Shown in pieces: positions 6,482-11,221 of a stretch of 13,000 nucleotides of DNA; positions within the stretch are counted from its first letter, which is position 1, and each line of letters starts with the position of its first letter. The notes under the pieces were generated by a model, which saw only the letters and a list, made by a program, of their open reading frames with translations, made no database searches and was not told the DNA's origin. The stretch is from a virus. Lineage: Duplodnaviria > Heunggongvirae > Uroviricota > Caudoviricetes. A program made the position numbers and the translations under genes. The stretch lies in the IMG/VR virus record IMGVR_UViG_2571042690_000014, one strand, 5' to 3'.

Positions 6482-6550
6482 CCCCTTTTGATTTGTTAAA
6501 ACACCTTGCGGTCTGGCAACTGCAAGTGTCAAACAAGAAATCAAAAGGGG
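6482..6550 (+). promoter_or_regulatory. Stem-loop sequestering the tnpA ribosome-binding site (IS200-type translational control structure)
   Basis: The left arm CCCCTTTTGATTTGTT (6482-6497) is nearly complementary to AACAAGAAATCAAAAGGGG (6532-6550), which overlaps the ribosome-binding site for the ATG at 6557. Confidence 0.45.
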
Positions 6551-6556
6551 GTCCCA

Positions 6557-7015
6557 ATGGGGAACGAAAAGAGCTTAGCGCACACCCGATGGAACTGTAA
6601 ATATCACATAGTTTTTGCGCCAAAATACCGAAGACAGGTGTTCTACAGAGAGAAGCGTAGAGCAATAGGCAGTATTTTGAGAAAGCTGTGTGAGTGGAAA
6701 AGTGTACGGATTCTGGAAGCTGAATGCTGTGCAGATCATATCCATATGCTTGTGGAGATCCCGCCCAAAATGAGCGTATCCGGCTTTATGGGATATCTGA
6801 AAGGGAAAAGCAGTCTGATGCTTTACGAGCAGTTTGGTGATTTGAAATTCAAATACAGGAACAGGGAGTTCTGGTGCAGAGGGTACTACGTCGATACGGT
6901 GGGTAAGAACACGGCGAAGATACAGGATTACATAAAGCACCAGCTTGAAGAGGATAAAATGGGAGAGCAGTTATCGATTCCCTATCCGGGCAGCCCGTTT
7001 ACGGGCCGTAAGTAA
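6557..7015 (+). CDS. tnpA: IS200/IS605-family Y1 (HUH) transposase TnpA
   Basis: The 152-aa product from the Met at 6557 (MGNEKSLAHTRWNCKYHIVFAPKYRRQVF...) has the HUH motif HIHMLVEI and a downstream catalytic Tyr region (REFWCRGYYVDTVG). The ORF track's longer form (6506) begins upstream of the ribosome-binding site and is less likely. Confidence 0.85.
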   Translation: MGNEKSLAHTRWNCKYHIVFAPKYRRQVFYREKRRAIGSILRKLCEWKSVRILEAECCADHIHMLVEIPPKMSVSGFMGYLKGKSSLMLYEQFGDLKFKYRNREFWCRGYYVDTVGKNTAKIQDYIKHQLEEDKMGEQLSIPYPGSPFTGRK

Positions 7016-7135
7016 CGAAGTTGGATGCAAATGTCAGATCGTGTGCGCCTGTTAGGGCGCGGCTGGTAAGAGAGCCTTATAGGCGCATTTGAAAAACCTC
7101 CGGCTATGCCGGAGGATATTTATTGTGGAGTGGAT

Positions 7136-9514
7136 ATGGCAGCAGTAAAAATCTCAGGTGTGCTGAAAGATGGTGCGGGAAAACCAATACAGAACTGCAC
7201 TATTCAACTGAAGGCAAAGCGTAACAGCACCACGGTACTGGTGAACACGGTGGCTTCTGAAAATCCGGATGAAGCCGGACGTTACAGCATGGATGTTGAG
7301 CATGGTCAGTACAGCGTCACCCTGCTGGTTGAAGGTTTTCCGCCTTCACATGCCGGGACCATTACCGTCTATGAAGGTTCCAGACCAGGTACGCTGAATG
7401 ATTTTCTCGGTGCCATGACGGAGGATGATGTCCGACCGGAGGCACTGCGCCGCTTTGAGCAGATGGTGGAAGAAGCGGCACGCAACGCTGAAGCCGCCTC
7501 TCAGAGCGCAGCGGCGGCAAAGAAATCCGAAACTGCAGCGGCATCATCGAAGAACGCGGCGAAAACCTCAGAAACGAATGCAGCTAACAGCGCACAGGCG
7601 GCAGCGACCTCAAAGACTGCATCGGCAAACTCCGCGACAGCAGCCAAAAAATCAGAAACCAACGCGAAAAATAGCGAGACAGCCGCAAAGACGAGCGAAA
7701 CCAACGCAAAGTCCAGCCAGACGGCAGCGAAAACCAGCGAAACGAATGCCAAAGCCAGTGAAACTGCGGCAAAAAACAGCCAGGTTGCAGCAGCCCAAAG
7801 CGAGAGCGCGGCAGCCGGTTCTGCGACTTCAGCAGCTGGATCAGCAACTGCTGCGGCTAACAGCCGGAAAGCTGCGAAGACGAGTGAAACTAACGCAAAG
7901 TCCAGCCAGACGGCAGCGAAGACCAGCGAAACGAATGCCAAAGCCAGCGAAACTGCGGCGAAAAACAGTCAGGATGCAGCAGCCCAAAGCGAGAGTGCTG
8001 CAGCTGGTTCTGCAAGCGCGGCGGCTGCTTCTGCCACTGCATCAGCCAACAGTCAAAAAGCAGCAAAAACCAGTGAAACCAATGCAAAGACAAGCGAGAC
8101 TGCAGCGGCGAACTCGGCGAAAGCATCCGCTGCAAGCCAGACCGCTGCAAAAGCAAGTGAAGACGCAGCCAGAGAGTATGCAAGCCAGGCAGCAGATCCG
8201 TATAAATATGTCTTACAGCCGCTGCCTGATGTGTGGATACCGTTTAACGATTCACTGGATATGATTACGGGCTTTTCGCCATCATATAAAAAGATTGTTA
8301 TTGGTGACGACGAAATAACGATGCCTGGCGACAAGATTGTTAAGTTTAAACGTGCATCGAAAGCAACCTATATTAACAAATCTGGTGTGCTGACAGAGGC
8401 TGCCATTGATGAGCCACGATTTGAACGTGATGGCCTGCTTATTGAGGGGCAAAGAACTAATCTTCTGCTTAATTCAACAAATCCATCTAAATGGAATAAG
8501 TCAGGCAATCTGGAACTCACAGAAATATCCACGGATTCTTTTAATTTTACTTATGGGAGATTTACTGTAAAAGATACTCTTATTGGTCAGACAAGTGCTA
8601 TTAATATCGTAACGATTTCTGGCAGTAAAGGGTTTGATGTCACAGGTGATGAAAAATATGTGACCATTTCATGCCGTGTAAGAAGTGATGTTGAAAATAT
8701 AAGGTGTCGTTTAAGATTTGAACACCATGATGGTTATACTTACACTTTTTTGGGAGATGCTTACCTCAATTTATCAACACTTGTAATTGATAAAACTGGT
8801 ACTGCTGCAGACCGTATTATTGCAAAGGCTGTAAAAGATGAGGTTACTGGTTGGATTTTCTATCAGGCTACAATTAATGCACTAGATACAGAGAGCATGA
8901 TTGGTGCGATGGTTCAATACGCTCCTGTAAAAGGTTCAGGTACAGCATCTGGAGACTATCTGGATATCGCAACTCCACAAGTGGAAGGTGGATCAAGTGC
9001 TTCGTCATTTATTGTAACTGATATAACTGCAAGCACTCGCGCAAGCGATATGGTGACAGTCCCAATCAAGAATAACCTTTATAATCTTCCTTTTACGGTT
9101 CTTTGTGAGGTACATAAGAACTGGTATAAAACGCCAAATGCAGCACCGCGTGTTTTTGATACCGGCGGTCATCAAACCGGAGCGGCTATTATTCTTGGCT
9201 TCGGTCGTTCAACAGATTACGACGGATTTCCTTATTGTGATATAGGTTTGGCTAACAGACGGGTAAACGAAAACGCATCGCTTGAAAAAATGGTTATGGG
9301 GATGCGTGTAAAGTCAGATCAGTCTACGTGCTCAGTAAGTAACGGGCGTATATCCAGCGAAAAGAAAGCCACATGGTCCTATATTCAGAACTCCGCAATT
9401 ATCCGTATTGGAGGCCAGACTACAGCCGGGTTGCGTCATTTATTTGGTCATGTCAGGAATTTCAGAATATGGCACAAGGCATTGACTGATGCTCAGATGG
9501 GGGAGTCAATCTAA
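7136..9514 (+). CDS. stf: Side tail fibre protein Stf (lambda Stf-like N-terminus, divergent distal domain)
   Basis: From the ATG at 7136, MAAVKISGVLKDGAGKPIQNCTIQLKAKRNSTTVLVNTVASENPDEAGRYSMDVEHGQYSV... matches the lambda Stf N-terminus. It is followed by Ala/Ser/Thr-rich KTSETNAK-type repeats and an AT-richer C-terminal region that does not match lambda. The ribosome-binding site is GGAG at 7127-7130; the ORF track start at 7106 lies inside the IS200 right end and is unlikely. Confidence 0.85.
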   Translation: MAAVKISGVLKDGAGKPIQNCTIQLKAKRNSTTVLVNTVASENPDEAGRYSMDVEHGQYSVTLLVEGFPPSHAGTITVYEGSRPGTLNDFLGAMTEDDVRPEALRRFEQMVEEAARNAEAASQSAAAAKKSETAAASSKNAAKTSETNAANSAQAAATSKTASANSATAAKKSETNAKNSETAAKTSETNAKSSQTAAKTSETNAKASETAAKNSQVAAAQSESAAAGSATSAAGSATAAANSRKAAKTSETNAKSSQTAAKTSETNAKASETAAKNSQDAAAQSESAAAGSASAAAASATASANSQKAAKTSETNAKTSETAAANSAKASAASQTAAKASEDAAREYASQAADPYKYVLQPLPDVWIPFNDSLDMITGFSPSYKKIVIGDDEITMPGDKIVKFKRASKATYINKSGVLTEAAIDEPRFERDGLLIEGQRTNLLLNSTNPSKWNKSGNLELTEISTDSFNFTYGRFTVKDTLIGQTSAINIVTISGSKGFDVTGDEKYVTISCRVRSDVENIRCRLRFEHHDGYTYTFLGDAYLNLSTLVIDKTGTAADRIIAKAVKDEVTGWIFYQATINALDTESMIGAMVQYAPVKGSGTASGDYLDIATPQVEGGSSASSFIVTDITASTRASDMVTVPIKNNLYNLPFTVLCEVHKNWYKTPNAAPRVFDTGGHQTGAAIILGFGRSTDYDGFPYCDIGLANRRVNENASLEKMVMGMRVKSDQSTCSVSNGRISSEKKATWSYIQNSAIIRIGGQTTAGLRHLFGHVRNFRIWHKALTDAQMGESI
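7688..8065 (+). repeat. Tandem duplication of a 189-bp (63-codon) unit inside stf
   Basis: AAGACGAGCGAAACCAACGCAAAGTCCAGCCAGACGGCAGCGAAAACCAGCGAAACGAATGCCAAAGCCAGTGAAACTGCGGC... from 7688 recurs from 7877 with only a few substitutions. It encodes two copies of TSETNAKSSQTAAKTSETNAKASETAAKNSQ.AAAQSESAAAGSA. Confidence 0.75.
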
Positions 9515-9795
9515 TGAAAGATTTAACACTCAAATTTGCAGACAGGGCCGACTTTTCGGCCTTTATGGATAGCATTGGCTATTATGATGACGAGTCGATG
9601 CAGGATGATATTCTTATTGACGTGATAGGTAACGTGTACAAAGAAACCGGAGAACTGACTGAAGATGGCGAACCGGTATGTGTTAAGGAAGATGGATATT
9701 ATGTAAACGTGCGCATCATTAATGATGCAAAAAAATCGTCAATATTCGATGAATACGCGGTTGTAGTTGAACATCAACTTCGTGGCTGGATGTGA
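9514..9795 (+). CDS. Hypothetical small acidic protein (93 aa), translationally coupled to stf
   Basis: The start overlaps the stf stop (TAATG) and is preceded by a GGGGGAG ribosome-binding site. The product is rich in Asp/Glu (MKDLTLKFADRADFSAFMDSIGYYDDESMQDDILIDV...) with no recognisable motif, and the sequence is AT-rich like the distal part of stf. Confidence 0.5.
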   Translation: MKDLTLKFADRADFSAFMDSIGYYDDESMQDDILIDVIGNVYKETGELTEDGEPVCVKEDGYYVNVRIINDAKKSSIFDEYAVVVEHQLRGWM

Positions 9796-9804
9796 GGGAG
9801 ACAA

Positions 9805-10509
9805 ATGGCTACATCGACAGTAATTCCAGGAGACATCACCACGTTAAAGGGAGATGTCAGTAAAGCCAAGGAAGATATTTCCTCAATTAACGGAAAAGTA
9901 TCAACGCTTCAGGCTGATATGACCAGTGCAAAGCAGGATATCAGCACCAGATACACAAAAACTGAAGTTGATAATAAGCTGAAAAACAAACTGGAAGTGA
10001 ACGCTCTGGAAAGCGGTCGTTATGGTGGAGATTTTTACCCGTTGACTGGCCGTGAAGCGTTTTATTTGTGGGGATTGGGCACGACTACAGCGGCGGCAAA
10101 CCTTTATCTTAATCCTGACCCCGCAATTTCGTCTGTGCTGCGGTCAACATCGTCTATCCGCTATAAACATTCAGTAGAGACAATAGATTCAGAGCACGCC
10201 GATCTCATTTTCAGGATGCGCCCTGTGTGGTACAGGTCACAATGCGAAAATGACAGGCGTGACTGGGGATTCTACGGATTGATTGCCGAGGAAGTAGGAG
10301 AAATTGCCCCTCAGTTTGTACACTGGCGACCAGCTAACGAAGATGATGCACCGGAAGCTATTTCCAGCAATGGCCTTGTTGCCGAAGGTGTAATGTACGA
10401 ACGTCTGGTTGTTCCACTGATTCACCATATCCAGAAGCTGACTGAAAGAGTTGATGAACTTGAGTCAGAATTAAAGTTGTTATCCGTTTCCCGAAGCGAT
10501 ATCGGATAA
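9805..10509 (+). CDS. Fibre-like coiled-coil protein with C-terminal intramolecular-chaperone (peptidase S74-like) domain
   Basis: It has a GAGGGAG ribosome-binding site. The N-terminus carries repeated coiled-coil-like units (GDVSKAKEDISSINGKVSTLQADMTSAKQDISTRYTKTEVDNKLKNKLE). The C-terminus fits the S74 / chaperone-of-endosialidase pattern: SIRYK (S-x-R-x-K), then LIFRMRPVWYRS, WGFYGLIAEEVGEIAPQFV and VMYERLVVPLIHHIQKLTERVDELESEL. The assignment is from memory of the family signature, not a search. Confidence 0.55.
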   Translation: MATSTVIPGDITTLKGDVSKAKEDISSINGKVSTLQADMTSAKQDISTRYTKTEVDNKLKNKLEVNALESGRYGGDFYPLTGREAFYLWGLGTTTAAANLYLNPDPAISSVLRSTSSIRYKHSVETIDSEHADLIFRMRPVWYRSQCENDRRDWGFYGLIAEEVGEIAPQFVHWRPANEDDAPEAISSNGLVAEGVMYERLVVPLIHHIQKLTERVDELESELKLLSVSRSDIG

Positions 10510-10519
10510 AGGAGGAGTA

Positions 10520-10807
10520 ATGGATATAAGCCCCTTACTTCATGCACTTTGTGCTGTGGCTGCGCAAACACTGGTTGGTCTTTTTACCGGAAACTGGGCT
10601 TACGGAGCGATAGCCGGTTGTACGTTCTTCATTGCGCGTGAACACACCCAGGCAGAATATCGCTGGATCGAAATGTTCGGGCATGGCAAGCGAATGAATA
10701 TGCCGTGGTGGGGCGGTTTTGATCCGCGCGCGTGGGATGTGACAAGCCTGATGGATTTTGCTGTGCCGGTGGTGGCGTGTCTGCTGATCTGGATGTTGAT
10801 CCGTTAA
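10520..10807 (+). CDS. Hypothetical small membrane protein (95 aa)
   Basis: It has a strong GGAGGAG ribosome-binding site 3 nt after the preceding stop. There are hydrophobic segments at both ends (LLHALCAVAAQTLVGLFTG, AIAGCTFFIA, FAVPVVACLLIWMLI). GC content is higher than in the two genes before it. Confidence 0.5.
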   Translation: MDISPLLHALCAVAAQTLVGLFTGNWAYGAIAGCTFFIAREHTQAEYRWIEMFGHGKRMNMPWWGGFDPRAWDVTSLMDFAVPVVACLLIWMLIR

Positions 10808-11159
10808 ATATAAAAGCCGCAGTAACTTGCCATGATAGGATACTGCGGCTGGCTGGTTAACTTTCGATAGTGCGAGTATTGAATGATTTCCAGCCGTTAC
10901 TGATTTTATATAACGGCAGTGGAATTATTCAACACACAGGCAAAACACAGGCAAAACGGAATAAGCTGAGAAAAAAAGCGTGCTTTCCCAATCTGGGGCA
11001 AATCACGTCTGAATGACACCTGAAAACAGGTGGTGGACTCAAGAAGGCTTGGAATATTCTTCTTTAATGTTATGTAATTCATTGATTTTTCGTGTACGAT
11101 TTTAAGACATTTATTCCAAGAAGAATTTTTAACTCTTTGATTTTTCTACTCTGTATCAT

Positions 11160-11221
11160 CGGTCTCGAAAACCGGAGTAGGGGCAACTCTACCGGGGGTT
11201 CAAATCCCCCTCTCTCCGCCA
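11160..11221 (+). other. Prophage att core: 62-nt 3' fragment of a tRNA-Ser (anticodon CGA, serU-type) gene, from anticodon stem to CCA
   Basis: CGGTCTCGAAAACCGGAGTAGGGGCAACTCTACCGGGGGTTCAAATCCCCCTCTCTCCGCCA has an anticodon stem-loop (anticodon CGA), a long variable arm, a T-arm GGGGGTTCAAATCCCCC and a 3' acceptor strand plus CCA. There is no 5' acceptor strand or D-arm upstream, so it is a partial copy, as expected for an att duplicate where a phage integrates into a tRNA gene. Confidence 0.7.

Follow-up and report, generated by a model that had tools for sequence, protein, structure and literature searches.

orf95, a small predicted inner-membrane protein encoded beside phage receptor-binding genes: family, genomic context, and a tentative exclusion-type role

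What is the function of the small gene that closes the host-range module of a lambda-like prophage? The question is raised by the stretch of viral DNA considered here (IMG/VR record IMGVR_UViG_2571042690_000014; 13 000 nucleotides, referred to below as the window), in which the gene orf95 follows stf, orf93, and orf234. An original prediction, made from the DNA letters, had described the product as a small membrane protein encoded last in the host-range module and had proposed that it might mask a receptor or exclude other phages in the manner of the Cor and Llp proteins. The window was found to be the right arm of a lambda-like prophage, with 100 % identity to genomes of E. coli ST131 (for example, EC958 and JJ1886) and with the gene order L, K, I, J, lom, IS200C transposase, stf, orf93, orf234, and orf95. 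The gene belongs to a widespread family that accompanies genes for receptor-binding proteins (RBPs), its product is predicted to be an integral inner-membrane protein, and a tentative case is made below for an exclusion-type role at that membrane. The coordinates of all features are collated in Table 1.

orf95 was confirmed as a real gene, and more than a chance reading frame, by its match to the family PHROG 1443, by its many homologues, by the selection acting on it, and by a confident structural model. The match to PHROG 1443, a family of unknown function, was obtained with an E value of 9.5e-57, residues 1–95 being placed on profile positions 1–95 of 97. Homologues were grouped into 575 clusters at 90 % identity and 445 representatives at 50 % identity, and relatives were present in all four proteobacterial classes sampled (Alpha-, Beta-, Gamma-, and Deltaproteobacteria), always as stand-alone proteins of about 90–140 amino acids and never as fusions. 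The gene is under purifying selection, with a median pairwise ratio of nonsynonymous to synonymous substitution rates (dN/dS) of 0.19 among 35 distinct close alleles. Of 5426 complete E. coli genomes, 2062 (about 38 %) carried a homologue, the copy number having a median of 2 and a maximum of eight, and in every case the annotation read "hypothetical protein".

The AlphaFold2 model consists of three helices (mean predicted local distance difference test score, pLDDT, 94.6), the first two of which form an antiparallel hairpin. The Kyte–Doolittle profile (15-residue windows) has maxima of 1.8 at residues 9–23 and of 2.75 at residues 80–94, and residues 40–73 are polar. The hydrophobic segments originally noticed at both ends of the protein were thus recovered as helices 1 and 3, which are clearly hydrophobic; the hydrophobic stretch of helix 2 is short and marginal. 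In the diverse alignment R40, E41, A45, E46, and W72 are invariant, Q44, R58, and P83 are conserved at 90 % or more and H8 at about 90 %, Y47, R48, and D79 are strongly conserved, and Q16 is kept in about two thirds of the set; D2 is invariant among the close relatives of orf95. The second part of helix 2 (residues 40–53) holds four of the invariant residues (R40, E41, A45, and E46) together with Q44, Y47, and R48, and the family signature can be written as H...G-R-E-x-(A/T)-Q-A-E-Y-R-W-I...R-x-N-M-P-W-W-G-G-F-D-x-R-x-W...S-x-x-D...P. As the first two helices run antiparallel to each other in the model, H8, the R40–E46 segment, and D79 should share one face of the membrane.

The orientation of the protein was considered from the distribution of lysine and arginine across the family, which amounts to a mean of 5.9 residues in region 40–75, about 0.6 in each terminal tail, and 0.08 in the turn between helices 1 and 2. 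By the positive-inside rule, this distribution speaks for an N-in/C-out topology, in which the conserved loop would be cytoplasmic. With the loop on that side, masking of an outer-membrane receptor, as originally proposed, would be ruled out.

The analogy with Cor and Llp fared no better. Cor (phages phi80, N15, T1, and HK022) and Llp (phage T5) are receptor-inactivating exclusion lipoproteins encoded beside host-range genes; a lipoprotein signal peptide comprises a basic n-region, a short h-region, and a lipobox cysteine around residue 15–25. An outer-membrane lipoprotein of this type, masking the receptor of Stf or J, would be suggested by the lipobox-like IAGC at residues 31–34, which is indeed present and fits the lipobox pattern, and by the place of orf95 beside host-range genes, which parallels that of N15 cor (gene 24, between the tail-tip and the tail-fibre genes). 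Cys34 is nearly invariant in close relatives, but only 11 of 97 diverse homologues have a cysteine there, the others carrying Ala, Ser, or Val. The N terminus (MDISP) contains neither K nor R and hence no basic n-region, any signal peptide would have to span 33 residues, among them the conserved D2, H8, and Q16, and the C-terminal helix is very hydrophobic. N15 Cor itself is a textbook lipoprotein, with K3 and LLSGC at Cys17 (MGKT..LLSGC17); when the family alignment A2 was compared by hhalign with N15 Cor (Llp was not part of this comparison), a probability of 0.16 % was returned. Cor acts specifically on the FhuA receptor (PMC11436027), and the same orf95-type protein is encoded beside RBPs that need different receptors. 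The lipoprotein reading is therefore largely refuted and retains only the slightest likelihood; what survives of the original prediction as a whole is an accessory membrane protein tied to host-range genes, and what falls is its receptor-masking lipoprotein form.

Searches for known relatives gave little. No match below E=0.1 was obtained for orf95 against Pfam and NCBIfam, none was found among solved structures and described folds, and a Pfam scan of 86 relatives revealed no recurrent family identity. The N-terminal domain of PhoR (PF11808) was matched weakly by 7 of the 86 members (best E value 0.0032, all far under the gathering score); this lead was rejected after an hhalign comparison with the N terminus of E. 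coli PhoR returned a probability of 0.13 %.

The genomic contexts of the homologues were more informative. As a rule, the homologue lies directly 3′ of a receptor-binding gene or is separated from it by one small chaperone-like open reading frame (ORF). It followed Stf in all 80 of the closest viral contigs, and Stf plus orf92 in phage 21 and in the plasmid-like PhiR41_1. Elsewhere it was found after the tailspike gene and before int in the P22-like phage Gally, after a tail-fibre assembly gene and before the sheath gene in the Halomonas myovirus phiHAP-1, abutting an S74-type fibre gene in a P2/HP1-like Leclercia prophage, after a pectate-lyase spike gene in a Citrobacter prophage, after a gene for a 2520-amino-acid GpJ plus a 72-amino-acid ORF in a Comamonas prophage, and just upstream of a tail-fibre gene in an Aeromonas jumbo phage. 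Tail, fibre, or spike PHROGs preceded it in 7 of 10 diverse loci (Chelativorans, Sphingobium, Halomonas, and Desulfovibrio). In two betaproteobacterial prophages with BPP-1-like diversity-generating retroelement (DGR) cassettes (L116, L117, 4785–8054), the homologue lies inside the cassette, between the probable 383-amino-acid target gene (PHROG 2889) and avd plus the reverse transcriptase gene. In an Ackermannviridae-type 160-kb genome from a Salmonella assembly (L158, 3398–8777), it lies between two tailspike genes of the Tail_spike_N/pectate-lyase type; the baseplate region of that genome is 96.5 % identical to that of phage pSal-SNUABM-02. The proposed link to receptor-binding genes was thus borne out and proved far broader than had been foreseen: the association with tail-fibre genes is conserved, and no homology to structural or lysis proteins came to light.

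The motif RE-x2-QAEYR...R...W remains unchanged throughout these contexts, whatever the type of the adjoining fibre or spike and in each of four proteobacterial classes; this speaks for a single conserved target, presumably at the inner membrane. Masking of a specific receptor does not fit this pattern, because the RBPs adjoined by the same motif must recognise different receptors. The same observation bears on another explanation, in which orf95 would be a membrane-anchored maturation helper for assembly or attachment of the adjoining fibre or spike. Its position directly downstream of the RBP gene, often overlapping or abutting it, is the usual place of fibre chaperones, and in the window it would be co-expressed with the fibres. 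The adjoining RBPs are, however, structurally unrelated, and some of them, the P22-type tailspikes, are not known to need a separate chaperone; a separate small chaperone-like ORF usually stands between the RBP gene and the homologue, the Gally gene lies past the tailspike terminator, and chromosomal copies occur without any phage genes. A polytopic membrane protein is, moreover, an unlikely partner for fibre folding in the cytoplasm. A maturation helper is accordingly regarded as very improbable.

The chromosomal copies deserve closer description. Several Aeromonas species possess a non-prophage orthologue at a conserved locus (L160, 6001–6309; also L095, L099, L102, and L103), at which pirin and the homologue are followed by a convergent PA4780-type RIO1-like kinase gene and two genes for LpxM-type lipid A acyltransferases, the latter at a distance of 1.2–3.3 kb from the orthologue. 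A link to Kdo kinase was considered and rejected, the neighbour being the PA4780-type RIO1-like kinase, and the large protein encoded upstream of the homologue in Aeromonas ACP1, for which an S74 identity had been considered, proved to carry a real intein (LAGLIDADG plus Hint). In sphingomonads the homologue is solitary, among varied housekeeping neighbours.

These copies are relevant to the explanation ranked second, in which orf95 is an envelope-pathway effector: a small membrane enzyme or inhibitor whose target would be an envelope intermediate carried on a lipid, or the machinery that handles it (undecaprenyl-phosphate-linked O-antigen, capsule, or enterobacterial common antigen; lipid A or lipopolysaccharide assembly), producing a conversion-type change of surface glycans with a gene borrowed from a host family. 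An invariant set of R, E, Q, E, R, W, D, and H residues at the membrane interface would be typical of a catalytic or ligand site, and most of the adjoining RBPs are directed at glycans (P22-like tailspike, pectate-lyase spikes, S74 fibres, and the GTA-spike-fibre Stf). The homologue of Gally occupies the gtrABC slot of P22-like phages (PMC2629481), chromosomal orthologues exist in sphingomonads and, near the two LpxM-type genes, in Aeromonas, and in one Pantoea locus an acetyltransferase-like gene lies about 1 kb downstream, past a second fibre-like gene. On the other hand, no similarity was detected to transferase, phosphatase, flippase, GtrA, or glycosyl- or acyltransferase families, in Aeromonas the orthologue and the lipid A genes converge and form no operon, the sphingomonad contexts are varied and not envelope-related, and 95 amino acids would be very few for an enzyme unless it were oligomeric. 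An envelope effector, which overlaps in outcome with an exclusion factor, is thus considered possible but rather unlikely.

With regard to expression, orf95 is probably co-transcribed with the late tail-fibre genes in the window, since a gap of 10 nt separates it from the orf234 stop codon and no promoter-like site was found on its strand. An inverted repeat just 3′ of its stop codon (Table 1) folds into a hairpin with an energy of −20.2 kcal mol−1 (z=−3.4); it was not called by a consensus terminator scan and may serve as a terminator or as a transcript stabiliser. The arrangement in Gally is different: a canonical intrinsic terminator closes the tailspike gene and is followed by an AT-rich spacer with a promoter-like site, a strong ribosome-binding site, and then the homologue, a layout that marks it as a predicted independent unit of the classical moron type. 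P22-like phages keep gtrABC in the slot that is filled by the homologue in Gally (PMC2629481).

The placement of orf95 close to the late fibre genes, with no promoter of its own in the window, would also suit a late-cycle or lysis accessory, made together with the fibres and tuning lysis timing or virion release in the way of an antiholin or a holin accessory. Its size and number of helices resemble those of a class I holin, homologues occur in virulent-type genomes (the Ackermannviridae-type contig and Aeromonas jumbo phages), and in several Comamonas, Acidovorax, and Pantoea prophages the homologue lies directly upstream of a cassette of holin candidates, endolysin, and spanins, thereby marking the border between the fibre and lysis modules. 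Between homologue and endolysin, however, there is a separate small ORF, for which a simple scan predicted transmembrane segments in most cases and none in L106; since this ORF is mostly a holin candidate itself, identity of the homologue with the holin is weakened. It is the RBP gene, and not the lysis genes, that precedes the homologue in genomes of the lambda-like, P22-like, P2-like, and Ackermannviridae types. Holin families in Pfam and PHROG were not matched by orf95, the sole hit among the relatives being a weak one to Phage_holin_8 in 1 of 86; a conserved polar loop of 34 residues and an almost uncharged C-terminal tail are atypical for holins, and chromosomal copies exist outside prophages. 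A lysis role is consequently held to be improbable.

The base composition of orf95 (52.8 % G+C) differs from that of orf93 (40.4 %), orf234 (45.8 %), and stf (47.3 %), and a homologue is absent from the equivalent region of N15. A G+C content unlike that of the neighbours and a patchy distribution (2062 of 5426 E. coli genomes; not in N15) are the marks of a moron; a separate, moron-like acquisition of a gene now parked 3′ of the receptor-binding module is thereby shown, in line with the separate acquisition originally suggested from the two preceding genes. In phage 21 a complete sitABCD iron/manganese transporter operon comes next after the homologue, on the other strand (L001, 5386–8835), which shows the fibre-distal end to be a cargo hotspot. 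It could then be asked whether orf95 is a mere hitch-hiker, that is, a small host membrane gene that persists at the insertion-tolerant, recombining 3′ ends of RBP genes and has no phage-directed role, serving at most as a conserved homology anchor for fibre exchange. Chromosomal family members exist; in E. coli the nucleotide sequence is more than 90 % identical beside variable fibre genes; and the gene is often the last viral one before the prophage end, with 35 of 80 viral contigs ending 12 nt or less from it. Against this, the dN/dS of 0.19 and the polar residues that are invariant across classes show a selected protein function, and independent placement after unrelated RBPs in at least four virion architectures is hard to credit to tolerance alone. 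Little credence is therefore given to a hitch-hiker.

The explanation favoured here, although tentatively, is that orf95 encodes an accessory protein which works on its own in the inner membrane and is of an exclusion or envelope-modifying type. The protein would be a stand-alone polytopic inner-membrane protein, with a helical hairpin (helices 1 and 2) and a third transmembrane helix, in which H8, R40, E41, Q44, E46, R58, W72, and D79 would form a polar cluster on one side of the membrane, which is most probably the cytoplasmic side. Judged from the conservation pattern, this polar motif appears to be what the protein is selected for. It would act on a conserved host component of the inner membrane and not on a particular outer-membrane receptor, and it would most likely protect the infected or lysogenic cell from further infection; exclusion would then take place at the inner membrane, where genome entry could be blocked or the supply of envelope glycans disturbed. 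Autonomous action is suggested because no fusions occur and because all-versus-all neighbour clustering of about 60 diverse loci revealed no conserved partner gene beyond closely related genomes. An exclusion-type factor is preferred because the RBP-adjacent slot is known to hold genes that alter susceptibility to infection, namely cor, gtrABC, and sieA, the last of these in a moron adjoining the P22 tailspike gene (PMC2629481, PMC10883804).

Several observations weigh against an exclusion factor. The family is unusually conserved and crosses morphotypes, unlike SieA, which is divergent and phage-type-specific: SieA is specific to P22-like ejection proteins, and its sequence types are less than 30 % identical (PMC10883804). 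Homologues occur in the virulent-type genomes named above, and the non-prophage copies of Aeromonas and sphingomonads suggest a cellular function that is not necessarily phage-related. Expression in the lysogen would be needed for exclusion by a prophage, and no promoter-like site was detected on the + strand between positions 9400 and 11 400. No PADLOC defence model was matched by orf95, the PHROG scan returned only families 1443, 34165, and 9191, all of unknown function and none annotated for exclusion, and a literature search found no paper on the PHROG 1443 family. Finally, the GenBank note for the phage 21 homologue records two transmembrane domains by TMHMM, an N-in/C-in topology, and a SignalP signal sequence, at variance with the topology preferred above.

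The family is undescribed, very common, and experimentally tractable. A wider proposal, which is speculative and on present grounds doubtful, is that it represents an unrecognised class of accessory proteins tied to RBP genes in every tailed-phage architecture, namely a three-helix enzyme or inhibitor with an RE-x2-QAEYR...R...W...D site, directed at one envelope or entry target common to Alpha-, Beta-, Gamma-, and Deltaproteobacteria and either derived from or domesticated as a chromosomal gene (Aeromonas, sphingomonads). If this were true, the target would expose a general step of infection or envelope biogenesis that is manipulated by phages of all morphotypes. The gene is carried by more than a third of complete E. 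coli genomes, including those of pandemic ST131, and yet is "hypothetical" in every database; it is a candidate determinant of phage susceptibility and would as such be relevant to phage therapy against ST131. Members of the family can also be used as landmarks for the 3′ boundary of host-range cassettes, both in annotation and in the engineering of receptor-binding modules. With 95 residues, a confident model, fewer than ten conserved polar residues, and no partner gene, orf95 is an unusually tractable object for the discovery of a new phage–host interaction at the inner membrane.

The reading frame of orf95 extends from the ATG at 10520 to the TAA at 10805–10807, and its strong Shine–Dalgarno sequence was read directly from the DNA. 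The side tail fibre Stf is the receptor-binding protein of the module; it was matched by Pfam phage_tail_N (E=2.6e-67), by the NCBIfam GTA_spike_fiber domain, and by PHROG 1419. Residues of about 120–365 (window about 7460–8200) form a long shaft repeat rich in Ala, Ser, Thr, and Lys (AAKTSETNAKSSQTAAKTSETNAKASETAAKNSQ...), the translation of which shows large internal duplications. orf93 overlaps the stf stop codon and matched no known domain; it was found upstream of the orf95 homologue in 72 of 80 close viral loci, and also in phage 21, and may encode a chaperone of Stf. orf234 covers only the last ~240 positions of the 1385-position fibre family PHROG 3299; a similar piece was found in 26 of 80 related loci but not in phage 21, and orf234 is either a leftover of recombination or a short fibre component in its own right. 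Within the late operon, a tnpA gene of the IS200C family (6506–7015; RefSeq coding sequence 6557–7015) sits between lom and stf, an insertion that could alter read-through into stf, orf93, orf234, and orf95.

About 350 nt beyond the end of orf95 lies a fragment of tRNA-Ser(CGA), beyond which the host genes begin with zinT; no further prophage gene therefore separates orf95 from attR. ARAGORN found no complete tRNA at attR, and Rfam gave a partial tRNA-like match. Several repeats were observed between orf95 and attR (10899–11146): CA(A/C)ACACAGG occurs twice at 10930–10951, TAAYTCWTTGATTTTTC occurs twice (at 11075 and 11130), and a 20-nt inverted repeat is present at 11048/11101. They may be arm sites for the integrase or for accessory proteins.

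Table 1. Features of orf95 and of its surroundings in the window (positions refer to the first letter of the window as 1).
Feature	Position	Strand	Remarks
orf95 coding sequence	10520..10807	+	95 codons/amino acids; member of PHROG 1443; predicted three-helix inner-membrane protein
Helix 1, residues 4–23	10529..10588	+	hydrophobic; conserved H8, Q16; from AlphaFold2, conservation, and hydropathy
Helix 2, residues 26–53	10595..10678	+	residues 27–39 weakly hydrophobic, 40–53 amphipathic; from AlphaFold2 and conservation
Trp-rich conserved loop, residues 54–73	10679..10738	+	GHGKRMNMPWWGGFDPRAWD; contains R58, W72
Helix 3, residues 74–94	10739..10801	+	most hydrophobic segment; conserved D79, P83
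Shine–Dalgarno AAGGAGG	10508..10514	+	5 nt before the orf95 ATG
Perfect 10-bp inverted repeat (hairpin)	10815..10850	+	just 3′ of the orf95 stop codon; no U-tract
stf	7106..9514	+	side tail fibre Stf, 802 amino acids; receptor-binding gene of the module that carries orf95 at its end
orf93	9514..9795	+	PHROG 1361, unknown function; small acidic protein
orf234	9805..10509	+	tail-fibre C-terminal piece with Peptidase_S74 chaperone domain
tRNA-Ser(CGA), 3′ 62 nt	11160..11221	+	anticodon arm to CCGCCA; no 5′ half; attR core

orf95 can finally be set beside four groups of known systems. With Cor and Llp it shares a small accessory gene adjoining tail-fibre and host-range genes and a plausible protection of the infected cell; it differs in the missing basic n-region, the unconserved cysteine, the three predicted hydrophobic helices, and the lack of any sequence relation to Cor, and also in that Cor is specific for FhuA whereas the orf95 family adjoins many types of RBP. 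Class I holins such as lambda S105 are similar in length (about 100 amino acids), in having three hydrophobic helices and late expression, as predicted for orf95 too, and in the occasional position beside a lysis cassette, whereas the orf95 family follows RBP genes, has a long polar loop, and matches no holin family.

Another group is formed by gtrABC and oac, the O-antigen conversion genes of P22-like and Shigella phages. The Gally homologue lies in the slot between tailspike and integrase that is occupied by gtrABC in epsilon34 and P22 (PMC2629481). Both encode membrane proteins, and both are expressed apart from the late operon, as judged for the homologue from the signals in Gally. In contrast to them, orf95 has no similarity to GtrA or to transferases, it is a single protein of 95 amino acids as opposed to a three-gene pathway, and its family is also present in virulent-type genomes.

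P22 SieA, T4 Imm, and HK97 gp15 block the entry of phage DNA at the inner membrane. According to the PHROG scan none of them is related to orf95 in sequence. SieA differs further in that it is expressed from the prophage, whereas orf95 here abuts the late operon without a promoter-like site, and in that the orf95 motif is invariant in sipho-, myo-, podo-, and Ackermannviridae-type phages, in jumbo phages, and in bacterial chromosomes. As small phage proteins of the inner membrane that work alone, these three nevertheless provide the closest functional analogy for the exclusion-type role that is tentatively proposed for orf95.

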